A stretch of DNA of 64,000 nucleotides from Candidatus Moraniibacteriota bacterium (GCA_049287005.1 JBAQEZ010000003.1:181958-245957), one strand, 5' to 3'; positions 1 to 16,545 are shown, counted from the first letter of the stretch. The notes: generated by a model from the sequence alone, not told the origin. A program made the numbers and translations.

Positions 1-3000
1 TTGCCAGCGGCGCATCAAGTCTGCTGAACAATATCGTCAAAAATAACCGCTACTTCGGCTTTCTGTTTGAAGCGGGAGGTTCTACGGTTTCTGGTGGTCT
101 TGTATCAGGCAGTCCATACGCTATCTTCAATCCTCGTGAACATTCCTTGGGTGTCATTGCCGTTCATAACGTAGATCTTTCAGGGACTACTGCGGCAGTA
201 GTAAACGACGCGGAGTTCTATTCGCTTGATGTAACAAAAAATTATTGGGGTAGTACGACAGGCCCCATCATCAATACCGACATTCAGGGTGCAGGCGTGG
301 CAAACGTTTCATTCGACCCATGGTATGTTAATTCCGGAAAAACGATTCTTTCAAGTGAGATTTCTGGAGGCGACACCGTTACAGCACCGAATGGCGCTGT
401 AGACGTAGAATTGCCTTCTGGTGCTCTCGGCGAGGCCGACCTACCAGCCGGAGTTACCGATGTCGTATTAGACAATGACTCTGGTCTAGATTTGTCGGCT
501 GGATTACAGGATAACGCAGTTACCTTGCAATCTGGAATTGCGGGTGCGGATGTTGTGTTGACCAATTCAGATTTAAGCGGTGTCAGCGCCAGTATTCCTG
601 ATGGAACATTGATTACCGGCCCAACTGGCTGGGATGGCATAATTACACCACCAACTTCTGGGACACCAGCCGGAGATGCTCCTGCAGGATTTGCTGTCGG
701 TGGGACCGTGATTTCAATTGGTTCACCCGATGGGACGCTTACCTTTGATACAGCGGTGACTATTGTATTGCCAGGTGTGACTGGTGCTGTCGGTTACAGG
801 CCATCAGGATCAACTGTGTGGCAAGAAATAACGAATGTCTGTACTGGAACATATGAGAACCCGACAGGTGCCGTATACCCTGGTGAATGTGCCATCAACA
901 ACGGAACCGATACGAAGATTCTCACTTTCCACTTCACGTCATTTGGTGATCTAGAGGATACTGCAGCCCCAACCGTTCCCGTTTTGCTTACTCCAGGTAA
1001 TAATGCATATTTAACAACGCATGACTTTACTTTCTCATGGGACACGGTTACCGATCCAAGCTCTCCGGTATCCTATGAATGGGAATTTTCATATGGAGCA
1101 ACTGTGAAGGGTGATGGTTCGTTCACAAGTAGATCGGGTTTTCACAGTCTGGCGTCTGCATCTGTATATAGTCCAGGAACACCAGACAATATCTATTATT
1201 GGCATGTACGAGCCATTGATTCTCTTGGTAATGCAAGTGCGTGGAGCTCAGCCTGGAAAGTAACTGTCGATACTGTCGCGCCTGCCACGCCTACCCATGT
1301 GAGCCCTGCTGATGGTACGTATACGACCACTGCCAATCTGATCAAGGCTGACTGGAGCGATGTCACGGATTCCAGTACGCCGGTTTCTTATTTCTACCAA
1401 TCTTCTCATTCTACAGCTCTTCATCTTGACGGTTCGTTTGTCAGTCCTGCTTATACTTCAGGAGCGCTTTCAGCTTCAGAAATTCCTACGCCGGGCACGC
1501 CTGCCGGTATCTATTATTGGCACGTGCGCGCAGTAGATGCCGCGGGAAATACAAGCGCCTGGAGCGATGCCTGGCAATTCACTGTCGATAACACTGCTCC
1601 GACAAAGCCAGTGTTTACGGCACCAACAAACAACCTCTTCACGAATGTAAACTTTGTTACCTTGATGTGGTCCAATGGCGATGACACAGGAACAACGCAG
1701 TCCGGAATCAAGGGGCACACGATCCGTTATGCCTTTGTTCCGATGGGTGGCGGCGCGACGATCCCTTGGACATCTGGCCTGATCGCCAGTGGCAACCCCA
1801 AGACGCATAGCGGTACCTACGGCCATGGACAGGGCACCTACACTCTGTATGTTTCCACCACTGACAATGCGGGAAACGTGAGTGCCGAGAGCAATCCTCT
1901 TGTGCTGAATTATGATGCTACGGCTCCCAATACCCCGCTTCTCAATACTCCGTCCGATGGTTTCGTGACCAAAGGTGTAGCGTTTACTCAGAAATGGTTC
2001 GCCGTTTCCGATGCGGTTTTGTATGAATACCAAAGTTGCAACACGGATCCTGGTGATACGGGCGATTCTTGTGGGAGCGTGAAGTGGACACAGAGCTTTA
2101 CTGGACTAACAAAGTCGGTAGGCGCTGGTCAACCTGACAGTCAATTCTGGTGGAGAGTGCGCGCCAAGGATGCGGCGGGAAATTGGAGCGGTTGGAGCGA
2201 ATCGAGAGAATTGAAAATAGACAATACCGCTCCGGTAACGACTGATAGTGGTACGGATGCTGATTGGCATAATTCTGATGTGACCGTGACTCTTTCTTGT
2301 GATGATGGAACGGGTAGTGGTTGTAACAAGACATATTACACGACCGATGGCTCGAATCCTACTTCCTCGTCGAATGAGGGCAATACTGTTGTAGTAAGCA
2401 GTGAAGGCACAACGACGATTAAATACCTCTCCGTGGATAATGCTGGCAATGCAGAAATAGTAAAAACAGCCGGAGAGTCAGTGAGAATCGACAAAACGAA
2501 TCCGGAGAGCGTCATTACCTTTCCAATAAATACTGCCACCAACCAAACTGTCATCACTAATAGTTGGGATGGCTCTATCGCCGGCACTGCCGCAGATACT
2601 ACCAGTAGTGTCGATCACGTCGCACTTTCCATAGAGCGCAGTTCCGATGGAAAATTCTGGAACGACTCAAACTGGGTTTCTGGTACTGAAGTAGGTACGC
2701 GAGTAACGTCCATAGGTACCACAAACTGGACTTATGCTATTATCCAAACCCTAGCCGAGGATACCTATACCATTACATCTCACGCTGTCGATGCCGCCGG
2801 GAATATCGAAAACTCCTATGTGATCACTGTTATCTTGGACAAGACCATCCCGGAAGTAACGCTGACTATCGATCCTGCGAATCCCAATGGAGACAACAAT
2901 TGGTATGCGACGGACCCAACAATCACCCTCGCTGCCAATGATAACTTCAATATTGATCGGATCCAGTACCAATTGAACAGCACAGGAGGTAGCTGGACCA

Positions 3001-3692
3001 CCTATGCTGCGCCAGTCACTCTCGCTGATGGCGTCTGGCAGTTCTACTACCGGAGCATCGATACGGCTTCCAATGCAAGCAGTATCGGCTTGAAAAACGT
3101 CAAAGTGGATACCGTTGATCCGGATAACGTGGATCATCTGGACGCTACCTACAGGCAATTACCAAACAGAGTGCAGCTGACGTGGGACGTGAATGACTCG
3201 GATATCGATTCCGTGTATATCTACCGCGGTAAGAGCAAGAATTTCAGTGTGAACACGATCTCTCGCATCGCCAAAAATAATCGGAATGACACCAACTACT
3301 CGGATGATAATGTCACGCCGGGCGAAAAGTACTATTACAAAGTGGTGACCATAGATAATGCGGGGAACAAGAGCAACGTCAACAGCCTCTCAATTGCTTT
3401 ACCTACCGAAGGAACGCAGGCGGTCGTAAAGAACGAAGGGACGGAAGCGTTGCCTGCGGGCACTGTCTTGGGAACAGAAACGGACAATAGCAATGGCGGC
3501 CAGGTGGAAGGCGCCAATGGTACAGGAGGGGATCAGTCAGGGCAGGTTCTGGGTGCGGAAACCGGTGGCTCGTCCGATAATGGGGGCGGCATACCTTTCT
3601 GGCAGTGGTTGCTCCTGGTCCTCGTTGTGGGAGGGGCAGGCTACTACGGTTACGGAGCCTACTACAAGAATCGCTATGAGCCTCTTCAATAA
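1..3692 (+). CDS. Large cell-surface protein with about 4 fibronectin type III-like repeats, further beta-sandwich/Ig-like modules and a C-terminal TM anchor. It is 5'-partial: the reading frame is open from the first base of the window.
   Basis: Repeated modules of about 100 aa each end in a YYWHVRA(I/V)D-x-(L/A)GN-x-SAWS motif, matching the bacterial Fn3 signature Y-x-V-x-A-x-D-x-AGN-x-S. The C-terminus has a hydrophobic stretch, WQWLLLVLVVGGAGYYGYGAYY. There is no in-frame stop between nt 3 and 147, so the gene starts upstream of the window. Confidence 0.6.
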   Translation, partial: ASGASSLLNNIVKNNRYFGFLFEAGGSTVSGGLVSGSPYAIFNPREHSLGVIAVHNVDLSGTTAAVVNDAEFYSLDVTKNYWGSTTGPIINTDIQGAGVANVSFDPWYVNSGKTILSSEISGGDTVTAPNGAVDVELPSGALGEADLPAGVTDVVLDNDSGLDLSAGLQDNAVTLQSGIAGADVVLTNSDLSGVSASIPDGTLITGPTGWDGIITPPTSGTPAGDAPAGFAVGGTVISIGSPDGTLTFDTAVTIVLPGVTGAVGYRPSGSTVWQEITNVCTGTYENPTGAVYPGECAINNGTDTKILTFHFTSFGDLEDTAAPTVPVLLTPGNNAYLTTHDFTFSWDTVTDPSSPVSYEWEFSYGATVKGDGSFTSRSGFHSLASASVYSPGTPDNIYYWHVRAIDSLGNASAWSSAWKVTVDTVAPATPTHVSPADGTYTTTANLIKADWSDVTDSSTPVSYFYQSSHSTALHLDGSFVSPAYTSGALSASEIPTPGTPAGIYYWHVRAVDAAGNTSAWSDAWQFTVDNTAPTKPVFTAPTNNLFTNVNFVTLMWSNGDDTGTTQSGIKGHTIRYAFVPMGGGATIPWTSGLIASGNPKTHSGTYGHGQGTYTLYVSTTDNAGNVSAESNPLVLNYDATAPNTPLLNTPSDGFVTKGVAFTQKWFAVSDAVLYEYQSCNTDPGDTGDSCGSVKWTQSFTGLTKSVGAGQPDSQFWWRVRAKDAAGNWSGWSESRELKIDNTAPVTTDSGTDADWHNSDVTVTLSCDDGTGSGCNKTYYTTDGSNPTSSSNEGNTVVVSSEGTTTIKYLSVDNAGNAEIVKTAGESVRIDKTNPESVITFPINTATNQTVITNSWDGSIAGTAADTTSSVDHVALSIERSSDGKFWNDSNWVSGTEVGTRVTSIGTTNWTYAIIQTLAEDTYTITSHAVDAAGNIENSYVITVILDKTIPEVTLTIDPANPNGDNNWYATDPTITLAANDNFNIDRIQYQLNSTGGSWTTYAAPVTLADGVWQFYYRSIDTASNASSIGLKNVKVDTVDPDNVDHLDATYRQLPNRVQLTWDVNDSDIDSVYIYRGKSKNFSVNTISRIAKNNRNDTNYSDDNVTPGEKYYYKVVTIDNAGNKSNVNSLSIALPTEGTQAVVKNEGTEALPAGTVLGTETDNSNGGQVEGANGTGGDQSGQVLGAETGGSSDNGGGIPFWQWLLLVLVVGGAGYYGYGAYYKNRYEPLQ

Positions 3693-4230
3693 AGACAGCT
3701 CTCGAAATCTGGTCATCGTCGGACTGGTACTCCTCGCGCTCGCGGAGGCAGTCTCTCTTGCTTTTGTCGGGCCGAGTCAGTCAGGTACCGGTAGCGTCCG
3801 TACCCAAGATGAGCAGCCCGCGGACGTCGCGCAGGCTCCGATTCAGAAGCTGTCTGAGATACGCGGAGCGCGCATTGATGATGGTGCGGGGACGATCGTT
3901 GTCGAAAGATCTTTGTCGGCACAGGTTCAGGCGAGAATATGCTTGACGCTGCCAGGGGGTCTCTGGATATTCCTCTTGCTGGGTTATGTCGCGCTGCTCA
4001 TTTTCAATTTCTCGTATACGTTCGATCGGGCTACCGCGCCACAGTGGGCGTGGGAGGCAGGACTGACCGCGCTGGCGCTCATCGCGTGGTATGCCTGGGA
4101 CGAATGTCGGACCAGTAGCTGGTTTCCTCTGATGGTAGTGAAGTCGGGACTGCTCGTCTTCATCGCGTATGCATATCTTTTGGAGAAAAAACTCTGGGTA
4201 AACAGCGACAAGACAGGGAGCCTGTTTTAG
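3676..4230 (+). CDS. Hypothetical membrane protein with several TM segments. It overlaps the 3' end of the surface-protein gene.
   Basis: ORF beginning at ATG 3676 (MSLFNKDSS...). Hydrophobic segments include LVIVGLVLLALAEAV, GGLWIFLLLGYVALLIF and LTALALIAWYAW. The longer ORF from 3493 lies in another frame inside the upstream gene, so the internal start is preferred. Confidence 0.4.
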   Translation: MSLFNKDSSRNLVIVGLVLLALAEAVSLAFVGPSQSGTGSVRTQDEQPADVAQAPIQKLSEIRGARIDDGAGTIVVERSLSAQVQARICLTLPGGLWIFLLLGYVALLIFNFSYTFDRATAPQWAWEAGLTALALIAWYAWDECRTSSWFPLMVVKSGLLVFIAYAYLLEKKLWVNSDKTGSLF

Positions 4231-11748: not shown

Positions 11749-12501
11749 ATGCTGATCGCGCTGCTCAAATTTTTGGATCCGTTGGTCGTCTTGTGTTTTG
11801 AGCTGCATGATTTCGCGAGCAGTTTTATCGCGAAAAATTTTCTTGTGATAAAACGGGGCATGCTGGTAGTCGCTTATCTGAGCTTATTGTGGATTCTGTT
11901 TCCGGAGACGAGAAGAAGTTTCGGGAATGCGGCTGAAGCGATGCTCCTGTTTATTCTGTTCCTGAGCCCGATATCAAAGATTTTCCGTATGCGCCTCTTG
12001 TTTCAGGCGATGGGATTGCGGCGAGAACTGGGCATTCTGATGGGGTGTTTCGCTTTAGTGCACGGAGCGGCATATTTTATTGATCCCGCTTCTTTCTCTT
12101 TCGACATAGCGCCGTATCTGAACACTCATTTTTTTTCCATGCAGCCGCTTTTTTATTTCGGCATCTTTTCGCTCGCACTCACGGTGCCGCTTTTGCTGAC
12201 TTCAAACAACCTCAGTCAGCGTGTTTTGGGCGGAAGAAGATGGAAAATACTGCACCGGATCGTGTATGTGCTTTTGCTGGTCGTGTTGTTGCACGTGCTT
12301 TTCCTCCGGAGCATGCGCGGGGGGTATAGTGTCATAGAGTGGATTCCGCCCATCAGTATTATTTTGGGATATATCTTGCTCAAGGTTCTCGCTTGGAAGA
12401 ATTTTTTGCCCTTCTTGCGTGACGGCATCGCCGATGTTAGCGCACGTTACACAGCGTTTGCTCTCGCGAAGAAGGCCAGGACGCCTTTGCAGGCTCCATA
12501 A
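11749..12501 (+). CDS. Ferric-reductase-like transmembrane domain protein (MsrQ/YedZ-like, heme b)
   Basis: Six TM helices with conserved His residues (GCFALVHGAAYFI; RRWKILHRIVYVLLLVVLLHVLFL), resembling the RLG-x-x-WK-x-LH-x-xVY motif of YedZ/MsrQ. Confidence 0.5.
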   Translation: MLIALLKFLDPLVVLCFELHDFASSFIAKNFLVIKRGMLVVAYLSLLWILFPETRRSFGNAAEAMLLFILFLSPISKIFRMRLLFQAMGLRRELGILMGCFALVHGAAYFIDPASFSFDIAPYLNTHFFSMQPLFYFGIFSLALTVPLLLTSNNLSQRVLGGRRWKILHRIVYVLLLVVLLHVLFLRSMRGGYSVIEWIPPISIILGYILLKVLAWKNFLPFLRDGIADVSARYTAFALAKKARTPLQAP

Positions 12502-12521
12502 TTTTTTATGCAGAGAGGTTT

Positions 12522-13769
12522 ATGGAAACAGTACGATATATGTTGCTCGCAGTGGCTCTGAGCGGAATCCTTCTGATATTTCCGATGGCTTCTTTGGCAC
12601 AGGTGACATCTGGCGGTGCCGCGGATCAGGTGTTGGTCGAAGTGTTTGAACGGCAGGATTGCGCTCATTGCCAGGCGGAAATACAGTATCTGGAGACGCT
12701 GCTTGCGAAGAGAAACGATGTGCGGGTGCAGTATGTCGATATCGGAACCGCCGCGGGAACGGACTTGTTCAATAATTTTACTGAAGCACAGAAACTTTCC
12801 AAGGCCACGCCGATCACGGTGATTGGCGCGACTGTCTTGCAGGGGTTTGATTCAGAAAGAACAACGGGTAAACGCATAGAAAGTTTGATTGATGCGAATA
12901 AGAGTAAACCTGGTATCGGTATCGCAGGCTTGCTATCCGGACAAATGAGTGACATTGAAAAGACCAGGGGAGCGATCTGCGACAGTACGACGGGTATCTG
13001 TACGATGCCAGCACCGGAACCCCTGTTCGTGACGATCCCCTTTACGAGCAAGACTATCGATGCGGCGCAGTATTCGCTGCCAATACTTTCGGGTGTTCTG
13101 GGATTGATCGACGGCTTCAACCCATGCGCCATGTGGGTCTTGGTGACATTTCTCATCGTCCTCGTTCAGATGGGATCGCGCCGCCGCATGTGGACGGTAG
13201 CTGGCCTGTTCATTATCGCGGAGACAGTCATGTATTACTTGATCTTAAACGTCTGGTTTACGACATGGGATTTTGTCGGACTGGATCGTTTTGTAACGCC
13301 GATCGTAGGCATCGTGTCTATCGGAGGAGGACTGTTTTTCCTGTATGAGTGGTATCACTCTGATGGTACTTGCGAAGTGGTGGGTCTCGAAGGACGGGCG
13401 AAAATTTCCGGCCGTATCAAGAAGCTGGCTAGCGAGCCATTCACATGGCTGACCGCTATCGGGGTGGTTGCTTTGGCCTTTTCGGTGAACGTAATCGAAT
13501 TTGCCTGTTCTATCGGTATTCCGCAGGCGTTTACCAAAATTATCCAAATGAATGATTTGAACTTTTGGCAAACGCAGGGCTATATGATGGATTACATTTT
13601 TTTCTATATGATCGACGATTTCCTAGTGTTCGGATTGGCACTCTGGGGCTTTGACAAGCTGCACCTGACGCAATCCTATTCGAAGTGGTCGAATTTGATC
13701 GGCGGTATACTCATGCTGATTCTCGGCTATCTCCTTATTTTTCATCCGGCAGCGCTCCGTTTTGTTTGA
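12522..13769 (+). CDS. Fusion of a thioredoxin-fold (CxxC) domain to a polytopic membrane domain; DsbD/CcdA-like thiol-disulfide membrane oxidoreductase candidate
   Basis: Signal peptide, then a Trx-like region carrying CAHC. The membrane domain carries conserved Cys in GFNPCAMWVL and EFACSIGIP. Confidence 0.5.
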   Translation: METVRYMLLAVALSGILLIFPMASLAQVTSGGAADQVLVEVFERQDCAHCQAEIQYLETLLAKRNDVRVQYVDIGTAAGTDLFNNFTEAQKLSKATPITVIGATVLQGFDSERTTGKRIESLIDANKSKPGIGIAGLLSGQMSDIEKTRGAICDSTTGICTMPAPEPLFVTIPFTSKTIDAAQYSLPILSGVLGLIDGFNPCAMWVLVTFLIVLVQMGSRRRMWTVAGLFIIAETVMYYLILNVWFTTWDFVGLDRFVTPIVGIVSIGGGLFFLYEWYHSDGTCEVVGLEGRAKISGRIKKLASEPFTWLTAIGVVALAFSVNVIEFACSIGIPQAFTKIIQMNDLNFWQTQGYMMDYIFFYMIDDFLVFGLALWGFDKLHLTQSYSKWSNLIGGILMLILGYLLIFHPAALRFV

Positions 13770-13793
13770 ACGTAGGCCAATAATCTGGTATAA

Positions 13794-14672
13794 TTGTCGA
13801 GTAATAATGTGTTAATGAAAAATGCTATGGAAACAGGTGATATGTCTCCTCAGGAGGGAACAGGAGAAAAGAGGTTCGGCAAGGACGCCTTGCTCGTTGC
13901 CGGGGCGGTGCTTTTAGCCGGCTTGATTATTGCGGGATCTGTTGTCGCGGCGACACAAAAGCTGTCATCTCCATCCGTAACGACCGCTCAACCGGCAGCG
14001 GCACCGACAGCTGATAAAGGAGCTCAGCAACCATCCGACCCGAGCGTTACCCTTGATCAAATAAAGGGTCTGTTCAATGGTAAGAATATTTCATTCGGCA
14101 AGAAAGACAGCAAGGTGCTGTTTGTCGAGTTCAGTGATCCGAGCTGCCCATTTTGTCAGGTAGCCGCCGGAAAAAATCCAAACCTCAACAAGCAAATAGG
14201 TGCGCAGTTCACTCTGGTGAGTGACGGAGGTTCATATGTGGCTCCGGTACCGGAAATGAGAAAGCTGGTAGACGCCGGCAAGGCCGCGTTCGTATGGATC
14301 TATACGAATGGACACGGCAACGGTGAAATGGGAACAAAAGCCTTGTATTGCGCTCAGGAGAAAAAGAAATTTTGGGAAGTCCATGATTTGCTCATGAGTG
14401 AAGCCGGGTACAACATGATGAATACCGATGTGAAGAATGACAAGACCAAGTCCGGCGTTGTGGCAGACTTCTTGAAAAACGCGGTGAGCGCCAGCGATAT
14501 GAAATCCTGCCTGGATAGCGGCAAGTACGATAGTCGTATCGTAGAGGACACGGCCACAGCTAGCCAATTCGGCCTGAGCGGTACCCCGAAATTTTTCATC
14601 AACACCGAAAACTTCAAGGGAGCGTACAGCTTCAAAGACATGCAAGCCAGCGTCGATAAGTATCTCAAGTAA
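13794..14672 (+). CDS. DsbA-family thiol:disulfide oxidoreductase, membrane-anchored
   Basis: N-terminal TM, then FVEFSDPSCPFCQ (CPFC active site). A second conserved region runs FWEVHDLLMS ... GTPKFFIN, including the cis-Pro. Confidence 0.65.
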   Translation: MSSNNVLMKNAMETGDMSPQEGTGEKRFGKDALLVAGAVLLAGLIIAGSVVAATQKLSSPSVTTAQPAAAPTADKGAQQPSDPSVTLDQIKGLFNGKNISFGKKDSKVLFVEFSDPSCPFCQVAAGKNPNLNKQIGAQFTLVSDGGSYVAPVPEMRKLVDAGKAAFVWIYTNGHGNGEMGTKALYCAQEKKKFWEVHDLLMSEAGYNMMNTDVKNDKTKSGVVADFLKNAVSASDMKSCLDSGKYDSRIVEDTATASQFGLSGTPKFFINTENFKGAYSFKDMQASVDKYLK

Positions 14673-14795
14673 ACCGTGGCTTTACGGGTTCTGAGAAAAG
14701 AGGGCCTTTGCGACCAGCAGAGGCTTTTCTTTTTTGGTATACTGTAAGTAGTAGAATAATTTGGACGTGAAACGTCCAAATGTCAAATATATTGT

Positions 14796-16334
14796 ATGTC
14801 TCTTCTCAATCAACTGAGGGAATGGCGGAACAGTCAGGCGCGCACCGAAGGCGTGGAAACATTTCGTGTTTTTCCGAACGCTGTTTTGGACGCGCTCGTC
14901 GGCACCCTCCCTCAGAACAAAGAAGAGATGCTTGTTATCAAGGGTATCAAGGAAGCGAAGTATCGGAAATATGGAGCCGCTCTTTTGAAGATTCTTTCGG
15001 AACAGACGCCCTCTGGAAAAAAATCACCCGGCACCGCTCACTTGGAGGTTCAGCCTCCAAGTTATAGGGAAGACGGGAAAAAGGAAGATGAAGACCCGAC
15101 TCTTTCAGTGAGCCAGTTCCTTGATGGATTGAATACGGAGCTGTCCGGTATGGCAGCGCGTGTGCAGGGGGAAGTATCGAGCGTAGATGAGCGGGAACGC
15201 GTGGTCTATTTCACCATCAAAGATAGCAAGGATGAGAGCACTCTCAACTGTCTCATTTTCCGTTATCAGTATGATATTTCCGGAGTGAAAATCGCTCTTG
15301 GAGATGAGATTATCGTCGAGGGGAGTCCGGAGATTTACAAACTGAGCGGACGCTTGAGCCTGAAAGTCGGCGTGATAGAATTGTTCGGCGAGGGGGCGCT
15401 CAAGAAAGCCTATGAAATGCTTCGCTTGAAACTCGAACAGGAGGGATTGTTCGCGCCCGAAAGAAAGCGGGTCTTGCCGGAATTTCCGGAACGCATCGCG
15501 CTCATTACCTCGGAGCAGGGCGCGGCCATCGGAGATTTCACGATGAACCTCGGCGCGCAGGGTTTCCGCGTCACGTTTTATCCGACGAGCGTGGAAGGAA
15601 AAAAGGCGGTGTTTGAAATTATCAAAGCCGTACGGTATTTCAATCGGCATCCTGAAAAGTACGATGTACTCGTTATCGTGCGGGGTGGCGGCAGCCTAGA
15701 GAGCCTGCAAGCATTCAATAACGAAACCTTGGTGCGCGAGGTGGCAGAGTCGCGGATCCCGACGCTTTTGGGCGTCGGTCATGAAAAGGATATCACTCTG
15801 GCCGCCTTGGTTGCCGATATGATGGTGTCGACGCCGACGGCGACGGCCAAGCAGCTGCGCTTCCATTTTGACGAGGCCAGACACTCGGTGCGTCATTTCG
15901 AAGTACAGTTGCCGACGCTGTTTCGCCAGCAGCTTTCGGATGTCAGAAATAGGCTCGCCTCAGATAGCGAAGTCCTGCTCGGCCATTTGCATTCCTTCCG
16001 GGAATTGGTGACGACGCTGCGTCAGGATCTGGTAGAGAGACTGTTTCTTGTCCAGGCTCTCATAGAGGGAAAAATCGAACTCTTGAGGCAAGGGAGAAAG
16101 AGTTTGATGAATGGATTTGGAGCTCTTTTTGAGCGGATCACGGAGCGGATCAAGCATAGCGGCGAACGTCTGGAACAATACGATCCGACGCGCGTTCTCA
16201 AGCTCGGGTATAGTCTGGTGAGGAAAGGCACGCAGGTCGTAAAAAGTATCTCAGACGTGAAGATCGGTGATATACTGAGCATACAACTCAGTCATGGTAA
16301 GTTGAATGCAACAGTAGAAGAAATAATTAAATAG
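14796..16334 (+). CDS. xseA: Exodeoxyribonuclease VII large subunit carrying an N-terminal HRDC-like domain
   Basis: XseA core: OB-fold region VVYFTIKDSKDESTLNCLIFRYQY, catalytic region VIVRGGGSLESLQAFNNE ... LLGVGHEKD. Residues 1-70 resemble HRDC (LREWRNSQARTEGVETFRVFPNAVLDALVGTLPQNKEEMLVIKGIKEAKYRKYGAALLKI). Confidence 0.85.
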   Translation: MSLLNQLREWRNSQARTEGVETFRVFPNAVLDALVGTLPQNKEEMLVIKGIKEAKYRKYGAALLKILSEQTPSGKKSPGTAHLEVQPPSYREDGKKEDEDPTLSVSQFLDGLNTELSGMAARVQGEVSSVDERERVVYFTIKDSKDESTLNCLIFRYQYDISGVKIALGDEIIVEGSPEIYKLSGRLSLKVGVIELFGEGALKKAYEMLRLKLEQEGLFAPERKRVLPEFPERIALITSEQGAAIGDFTMNLGAQGFRVTFYPTSVEGKKAVFEIIKAVRYFNRHPEKYDVLVIVRGGGSLESLQAFNNETLVREVAESRIPTLLGVGHEKDITLAALVADMMVSTPTATAKQLRFHFDEARHSVRHFEVQLPTLFRQQLSDVRNRLASDSEVLLGHLHSFRELVTTLRQDLVERLFLVQALIEGKIELLRQGRKSLMNGFGALFERITERIKHSGERLEQYDPTRVLKLGYSLVRKGTQVVKSISDVKIGDILSIQLSHGKLNATVEEIIK

Positions 16335-16344
16335 CACGACTCTT

Positions 16345-16545
16345 ATGGCGAAGGTAAATTTGAGCGACTCTCTGAAGAAAGTGCAGGAAATCATCCGCTG
16401 GTTCGATAATCAGGAAGAGGTGGACGTGGAAAAAGGATTGGAAAAAATCAGAGAGGGCACGGTCCTGATCAAAGAGAGTCGCACGCGCCTGAAAGAAATC
16501 GAAAACGAATTCGAAGTGGTGAAAAAAGAACTCGAAAAAGAATAG
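16345..16545 (+). CDS. xseB: Exodeoxyribonuclease VII small subunit
   Basis: 66-aa helical protein lying 10 nt downstream of xseA; matches XseB-like features (EKGLEKIREGTVLIKESRTRLKEIENE). Confidence 0.8.
   Translation: MAKVNLSDSLKKVQEIIRWFDNQEEVDVEKGLEKIREGTVLIKESRTRLKEIENEFEVVKKELEKE

Follow-up and report, generated by a model that had tools for sequence, protein, structure and literature searches.

The window analysed here is a whole stretch of 64,000 nucleotides from Candidatus Moraniibacteriota bacterium (GCA_049287005.1 JBAQEZ010000003.1:181958-245957). It contains an xseA gene, encoding the large subunit of exonuclease VII (ExoVII), whose product carries an HRDC domain and a linker ahead of the XseA core. 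The gene and its immediate surroundings are laid out as follows; positions are counted from the first letter of the window.

14700..14728, plus strand: terminator-like hairpin, a 12-pair stem followed by a T-run, CTTTTTTGGT
14796..16334 including the stop, plus strand: xseA, HRDC-fused exonuclease VII large subunit, 512 amino acids, ATG start
14802..14996, plus strand: HRDC domain, residues 3-67, a predicted five-helix RecQ-type bundle (Pfam, AlphaFold2 (AF2) and Foldseek)
14997..15104, plus strand: hypervariable linker, residues ~68-103, predicted to be disordered (low predicted local distance difference test score (pLDDT), low pairwise identity)
15105..15386, plus strand: XseA N-terminal OB fold, residues 104-197 (Pfam tRNA_anti_2, alignment to 8txr_A)
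15447..15833, plus strand: XseA catalytic domain, residues 218-346 (alignment to E. coli XseA 8txr_A)
15834..16331, plus strand: long helix, residues 347-461, and C-terminal beta domain, residues 462-512 (AF2 model, 8txr_A alignment)
16345..16545, plus strand: probable xseB, divergent exonuclease VII small subunit, 66 amino acids, 10 nucleotides 3' of xseA

HRDC domains are named for their C-terminal place in helicases and RNase D. Here, PF00570 falls on residues 3-67 in a Pfam scan with 68.2 bits (E 6e-19, profile positions 4-68 of 68), which is well over the cut-off of 23.8 bits. The original prediction, made from the sequence alone, was that residues 1-70 form an HRDC domain; the family match, the predicted fold and the in-frame fusion to an apparently complete XseA bear this out. 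The sequence it quoted, FRVFPNAVLDALVGTLPQNKEEMLVIKGIKEAKYRKYGAALLKI, is present as written. No second HRDC was found within the 64-kb window.

When residues 1-72 are modelled alone with 46 homologs, AF2 predicts a five-helix HRDC bundle (helices 3-18, 22-25, 28-37, 42-46 and 53-69) with a pLDDT of 93.5. The best Foldseek match in the PDB is the HRDC of E. coli RecQ (1wud), with a template modelling (TM) score of 0.90 and a root-mean-square deviation of 0.6 A over 66 columns (E 2.6e-4). The top 32 matches are all HRDC domains. Those of RNase D and Rrp6 occupy ranks 16-30; RNase D itself (1yt3) is matched at E 7.6e-2.

Sequence comparison gives a similar order. A profile of diverse fusion HRDCs aligns without gaps to three bacterial RecQ HRDCs in the PDB: D. 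radiodurans RecQ HRDC3 (2rhf, 67.9 bits), D. radiodurans RecQ HRDC1 (2ma1, 66.1 bits) and the E. coli domain (1wud, 60.7 bits), all with the same five-helix fold. Scores fall further, in this order, for BLM, WRN and the Rrp6 homologue exosome component 10 (the last at no more than 22 bits), and RNase D is absent from the profile matches at E <= 0.01. In NCBIfam, recQ scores 48.8 bits versus 21.4 bits for rnd. By sequence and predicted fold, the domain therefore appears clearly closer to bacterial RecQ HRDCs than to those of RNase D and Rrp6.

The protein as a whole was also considered as a RecQ helicase and as an RNase D; both identities were rejected. Pfam finds no helicase domain, and the NCBIfam recQ model (cut-off 640 bits) is matched by residues 3-69 only in its C-terminal HRDC segment (positions 524-590, 43.9 bits). 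Pfam likewise finds no DNA_pol_A_exo1 domain; the rnd match is confined to the HRDC region and is weak (17.8-21.4 bits against a cut-off of 299).

The XseA part looks complete and catalytically competent, judging from family matches and aligned residues. Pfam places Exonuc_VII_L (PF02601) on residues 218-505 (221 bits, cut-off 35.9) and the OB-fold family tRNA_anti_2 on residues 104-193 (51 bits); a second OB-fold family, tRNA_anti-codon, falls on residues 122-196 with 25 bits, just below its cut-off of 27. TIGR00237 (xseA) matches residues 120-508 at equivalog level (311 bits, cut-off 180). The protein aligns to E. coli XseA (PDB 8txr_A) with E 3.9e-40; residues 445-510 form a second HMMER stretch.

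In E. coli XseA, D155, R205, H238 and D241 are needed for nuclease activity (PMC3439923). Their equivalents here are D247, R296, H329 and D332, all four of which are invariant across 52 homologs. F63 and R64/R68/R69 of the E. coli OB fold act in DNA binding (PMC3439923). The first two are kept as F155/R156, whereas R68/R69 are replaced by D160/I161.

The AF2 model of the full-length protein (mean pLDDT 80.6) contains an OB fold, an alpha/beta catalytic domain, a helix of 115 residues (347-461) and C-terminal beta strands (474-506). Its best PDB match by Foldseek is E. coli ExoVII (E 3e-25). The long helix is presumed from the model to be the XseB-binding stalk.

The 66-residue open reading frame (ORF) that follows xseA is read as a divergent XseB. 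Its sole family matches are to XseB families, both below the curated cut-offs: Exonuc_VII_S in Pfam (22 bits against 24, E 1.7e-4) and TIGR01280 xseB (24.8 bits against 35, E 1.6e-5, profile positions 4-55 of 57). A sequence search of the PDB with this ORF gave no meaningful match. An XseB-like ORF is found at 66 of 80 related loci.

Canonical XseA, as represented by the E. coli protein (8txr), has the same OB fold, D/R/H/D catalytic domain, helical stalk and C-terminal domain, and its adjacent xseB probably has a counterpart here. It differs in lacking the approximately 100 N-terminal residues which form the HRDC and linker here. The published map of XseA has four domains, the first being the OB fold (PMC3439923), and in alignment E. 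coli XseA covers the window protein from residue 123 onwards only. This agrees with the original statement that canonical XseA does not carry an HRDC. That account put 70 residues ahead of XseA; this is correct for the HRDC itself (residues 1-70), but about 100 residues precede the canonical start once the linker of ~30 residues is counted.

The linker is predicted to be disordered; residues 73-98 have pLDDT below 50 in the full-length AF2 model. It had been described as rich in Lys and Glu. Both residues are present, but the composition is broader (Ser, Glu, Pro, Lys, Asp and Gly). Linker length varies from 29 to 77 residues in close homologs, from 15 to 62 in loci from GTDB genomes and from ~8 to 85 across the alignments used for identity comparison. 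In those alignments, mean pairwise identity of the linker is 0.13 among close homologs and 0.09 in a diverse set.

One homolog has a further domain at this position. In P0132 (NTV55437.1, Candidatus Moranbacteria, 623 residues, partial), the endonuclease-like DUF559 (PF04480) occupies residues 67-169 with 124 bits; the insertion falls within the linker, with a truncated HRDC on one side and the OB fold on the other. A second nuclease-type domain is thus tolerated, or recruited, at this site.

The fusion of HRDC and XseA is widespread. The identical protein at NCBI is annotated as 'exodeoxyribonuclease VII large subunit' from a Candidatus Moraniibacteriota metagenome-assembled genome (MAG). Among the best 120 homolog clusters (56-79% identity), more than 110 have PF00570 together with PF02601. 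A HMMER search with residues 1-215 against 1.84 billion representatives clustered at 50% identity gave 62 matches at E <= 1e-30 and 384 at E <= 1e-10. Of 149 representatives listed, 106 contain HRDC, OB fold and catalytic domain, and 11 more are fragments with HRDC and OB fold; the layout is thus common to at least 117 clusters at 50% identity. Domains in the 149 representatives were scored with local hidden Markov models, with a Pfam spot-check on ten proteins. Six of the more divergent fusions have Pfam HRDC scores of 46.7-70 bits.

In GTDB, 138 species-representative genomes were confirmed to match a single HRDC motif, [IV]KGIK[ED][AKR]K[YF]; this motif favours Moranbacteria-like HRDCs and undercounts the 'KGIG' type. 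Eighty of these loci were retrieved. A single ORF covers HRDC, OB fold and catalytic domain in 76 of them; of the other four, three run off a contig end and one is frameshifted. Homologs begin at the same MSLL position. In the window, the DsbA-like gene 5' of xseA has its own stop at 14672, followed by the terminator-like hairpin (14700-14728), which would set xseA apart from the upstream ORF; the RNA between the two genes has a folding z of -4.66. The HRDC-XseA fusion is almost certainly real. Mis-joining of a separate upstream gene, which the original prediction had named as a possible source of error, is ruled out by the upstream stop and hairpin together with the single ORF at 76 of 80 loci.

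Where record titles are informative, the names given are Moranbacteria/Moraniibacteriota, Lloydbacteria, Minisyncoccota and 'Patescibacteria group'. Many third-party MAG records that encode HRDC-XseA are instead titled 'uncultured Bdellovibrionales', 'Candidatus Saccharibacteria' or 'Gammaproteobacteria' (among them L006, L012-L016, L020-L023, L057, L062, L067, L072 and L075-L077). XseA identity to the window protein is 38-66% in these records versus 40-79% in those labelled Moranbacteria. Since the identities lie within the Moranbacteria range, these titles are considered unreliable and were not counted as a sign that the fusion occurs in other phyla; they look like placeholders or misassignments. 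Among the members of 20 divergent clusters, almost no taxon names are given.

Two individual loci differ in other ways. One MAG, SRP286056_co1_478, contains two separate HRDC-XseA loci (CAYLMF010000028.1 and CAYLMF010000015.1, our L054 and L055), which could be a paralog pair or the result of a mixed bin. At positions 489-2104 of L053, xseA is split: one ORF encodes the HRDC and OB fold, and a second, overlapping ORF encodes the catalytic region. A frameshift, a pseudogene or a sequencing error in this MAG could explain the split.

Close homologs without the HRDC also exist: P0095, P0107 and P0113 (421 residues). P0113 is encoded on two contigs, L081 (xseA at 2501-3766) and L082 (xseA at 1310-2575), where gene order is as in the window: ferric-reductase-like protein, 415-residue membrane protein, DsbA-like protein, XseA, XseB and POR. 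An additional YgjP-like gene lies between xseB and POR in these contigs and is not present in the window. Their XseA is 67.6% identical to the window protein over window residues 102-512 and starts at approximately window residue 92-102. No HRDC remnant was found in the 67-bp gap upstream of this xseA.

The presence of plain XseA in a syntenic relative identifies HRDC plus linker as a discrete N-terminal add-on, and as an accessory rather than an essential module. The fusion layout spans sequences down to ~31% identity, while the HRDC-less forms sit among close relatives; secondary loss is the more likely origin of the HRDC-less forms.

Other N-terminal variants are found among the homologs. 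P0259 (565 residues) has ~200 residues before the OB fold with no Pfam family match. P0182 (480 residues) has a weak, partial HRDC match of 25.5 bits. These N-termini may be other, or decaying, modules on XseA.

The HRDC is conserved to a degree comparable with the OB fold. Among close homologs, mean pairwise identity is 0.66 for the HRDC and 0.78 for the OB fold; across the diverse set, it is 0.38 and 0.37, respectively. This pattern suggests purifying selection on the HRDC.

In E. coli RecQ (EcRecQ), the Y555A substitution abolishes binding of single-stranded DNA (ssDNA) by the HRDC (PMC4464074) and mutation of K587 lowers ssDNA affinity 10-fold (PMC2396406). Profile alignment places F23 of the window protein at Y555, and K55 at K587 and at R806 of D. 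radiodurans RecQ (DrRecQ). Among 263 distinct fusion HRDCs, the residue at position 23 is aromatic without exception (Y 51%, F 48%, rare W), and that at position 55 is either K (96%) or R (4%). The surface residues R11, K49, G50, K55, Y59 and G60 are invariant or near-invariant in the same set.

Fusion HRDCs are also basic: their median isoelectric point (pI) is 9.5, and 93.5% are above pI 8. The EcRecQ HRDC has a pI of 9.9, while DrRecQ HRDC3 and BLM HRDC are both at ~4.9. With aromatic and basic equivalents and net basic charge, the fusion domain has what appears to be a nucleic-acid-binding surface like that of the EcRecQ HRDC. The fusion HRDC is further like that of RecQ in being attached by a flexible linker (for RecQ, PMC4464074). 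The two differ in position: the RecQ HRDC lies at the C-terminus of a helicase, whereas the fusion HRDC lies at the N-terminus of a nuclease. Both the ssDNA-binding residues and the basic charge agree with the original suggestion that the domain could direct ExoVII to particular DNA structures.

Our preferred explanation is that the HRDC acts as a tethered auxiliary nucleic-acid-binding module which recruits ExoVII to its substrates or retains it there; we give this a probability of roughly 0.6. The domain would bind ssDNA or single-/double-strand junctions weakly, using the same surface as the E. coli RecQ HRDC (F23, K55 and the basic face). Because XseA is dimeric or tetrameric in ExoVII, the number of HRDCs per holoenzyme would be two to four, each on a flexible arm of ~35 residues. 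Multiple arms could provide avidity for ssDNA tracts, gaps, forks and tailed ends. The local concentration of substrate for the OB folds would be raised and residence lengthened, and ssDNA would be fed to the OB fold and active site.

Published work on both partners provides the frame for this mechanism. E. coli ExoVII is XseA4.XseB24, a tetramer kept together by N-terminal OB folds that partly block the active sites; on DNA it falls to XseA2.XseB12 (PMC10835039). For RecQ, a model has been proposed in which a tethered HRDC at high local concentration catches nearby ssDNA (PMC6773442).

Several points weigh against recruitment by DNA binding. A close relative has XseA without the HRDC; the core enzyme therefore works without the module, and any HRDC contribution may be subtle. 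Many HRDCs, poor DNA binders such as BLM included, share the aromatic residue of position 23 and the basic one of position 55, so conservation of this pair is consistent with DNA binding but not decisive. The WRN HRDC is reported not to bind DNA. HRDC functions vary widely in general, and those of BLM and DrRecQ HRDC3 act mainly by intramolecular contacts (PMC2396406, PMC4464074).

These last examples lead to the main rival, which is possible but doubtful: that the fusion HRDC is a regulatory or protein-interaction module and not a DNA binder. One way would be for the domain to fold back against the OB fold, catalytic domain or neck helices and so gate access or control the tetramer-dimer equilibrium; another would be recruitment of a partner, for example SSB, a topoisomerase or RecA. 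The BLM HRDC packs on the ATPase core and DrRecQ HRDC3 regulates via an interdomain surface (PMC2396406, PMC4464074), but both of these are acidic (pI ~4.9), unlike the basic fusion HRDCs (median 9.5). Assembly of the tetramer through N-terminal OB folds sterically controls ExoVII (PMC10835039), which puts an addition at the N-terminus in a good position to influence assembly; on the other hand, a hypervariable linker of 15-77 residues speaks against fixed docking. The equivalents of the ssDNA-binding residues are always retained, which also argues against a purely regulatory role.

Recruitment by DNA binding might be taken further. The HRDC could make ExoVII a structure-targeted nuclease with a new job in the reduced-genome, host-dependent Patescibacteria, choosing the DNA ends that are engaged. 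We consider this unlikely. If it were true, one option is that the fusion provides a compact substitute for RecQ/RecJ-type processing of gaps, forks and D-loops. The other option is capture and degradation of imported ssDNA for nucleotide salvage; Patescibacteria are reported to have competence machinery and to lack nucleotide synthesis (PMC11809585).

RNA binding, as in RNase D and Rrp6, would direct ExoVII to RNA-DNA hybrids or RNA-containing substrates. This is very improbable. RNase D and Rrp6 HRDCs share the fold (hence Foldseek ranks 16-30) and there is the weak rnd match of 17.8-21.4 bits, but sequence and structure both lie clearly nearer to RecQ: 48.8 bits for recQ against 21.4 for rnd, 60-68 bits for the RecQ HRDCs of the PDB against at most 22 for exosome component 10, and a Foldseek E value of 2.6e-4 for 1wud against 7.6e-2 for 1yt3. 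In addition, the E. coli ExoVII tetramer is dissociated by DNA and not by RNA substrates (PMC10835039).

It is scarcely credible that the HRDC is a neutral leftover of domain accretion with no function. The syntenic relative without the domain and the weak HRDC match in P0182 (25.5 bits) would be expected of such a leftover. A functionless domain should not, however, be as conserved as the OB fold in sequences down to ~31% identity while the adjoining linker is randomised, nor should its surface residues (R11, K49, G50, K55, Y59 and G60) be invariant or nearly so.

An artefact, in which an upstream HRDC gene was mis-joined by a frameshift or assembly error or the wrong start codon was chosen, has a negligible chance of being correct. 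A few database homologs have no HRDC match (P0094, P0095, P0107, P0110 and P0113), but P0113 is a true deletion form, and the DNA upstream of its gene contains no HRDC. The three domains share one ORF in 76 of 80 independent species-level genomes, with contig ends (three) and a frameshift (one) explaining the rest; homologs share the MSLL start; and the gene before xseA is closed by a stop of its own, with the terminator-like hairpin behind it.

Upstream of xseA, a cluster of three genes occupies positions 11749-14672; its order is also kept in L081.

11749..12501: ferric-reductase-like membrane protein, first gene of the cluster
12522..13769: multi-pass membrane protein of 415 residues without a Pfam family; its N-terminal region is glutaredoxin-like, with a CxxC
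13794..14672: DsbA/thioredoxin-like protein with a CPFC motif

This cluster looks like an extracytoplasmic thiol-disulfide oxidoreductase module. Between it and xseA, 3' of the terminator-like hairpin, lies a second, perfect hairpin of ~9 bp at 14759-14779 (TTTGGACG-TGAAA-CGTCCAAA), which ends 17 nucleotides 5' of the xseA ATG. No obvious Shine-Dalgarno sequence precedes this ATG. The second hairpin could be a regulatory or leader structure.

The HRDC-XseA architecture appears to be undescribed and unstudied, although domain databases compute the PF00570 match. In the full texts searched, only incidental co-mentions of HRDC with exonuclease VII, XseA or Patescibacteria were found. Public records name these proteins plainly as 'exodeoxyribonuclease VII large subunit', and the extra domain is invisible in such names.

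The closest precedent for an exonuclease with an HRDC is RNase D/Rrp6, a DEDD 3'-5' exonuclease with a C-terminal HRDC. The two designs are distinct. The nuclease folds are unrelated, that of XseA being dehydroquinate-dehydratase-like (PMC10835039) and not DEDD. The substrate of XseA is DNA and not RNA. The HRDC of the fusion is N-terminal and loosely tethered, and is not packed into a ring. The fusion thereby extends the range of the HRDC, as an N-terminal module on an unrelated nuclease fold.

A nucleic-acid-binding module on a repair nuclease is unsurprising in kind; the finding is moderately interesting, and its value is as a handle on substrate recognition by ExoVII and on patescibacterial DNA metabolism. 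According to the E. coli structure paper of 2024 (PMC10835039), the mechanism of ExoVII end-selectivity is unclear, and substrate-bound structures are needed to establish the role of the N-terminal OB folds in tetramer opening. Fused and near-isogenic HRDC-less forms, such as that of L081, provide a natural comparison for the effect of additional DNA contacts on ExoVII recruitment, oligomeric state and processivity. The fusion is also a contribution to the still sparse knowledge of patescibacterial DNA repair.

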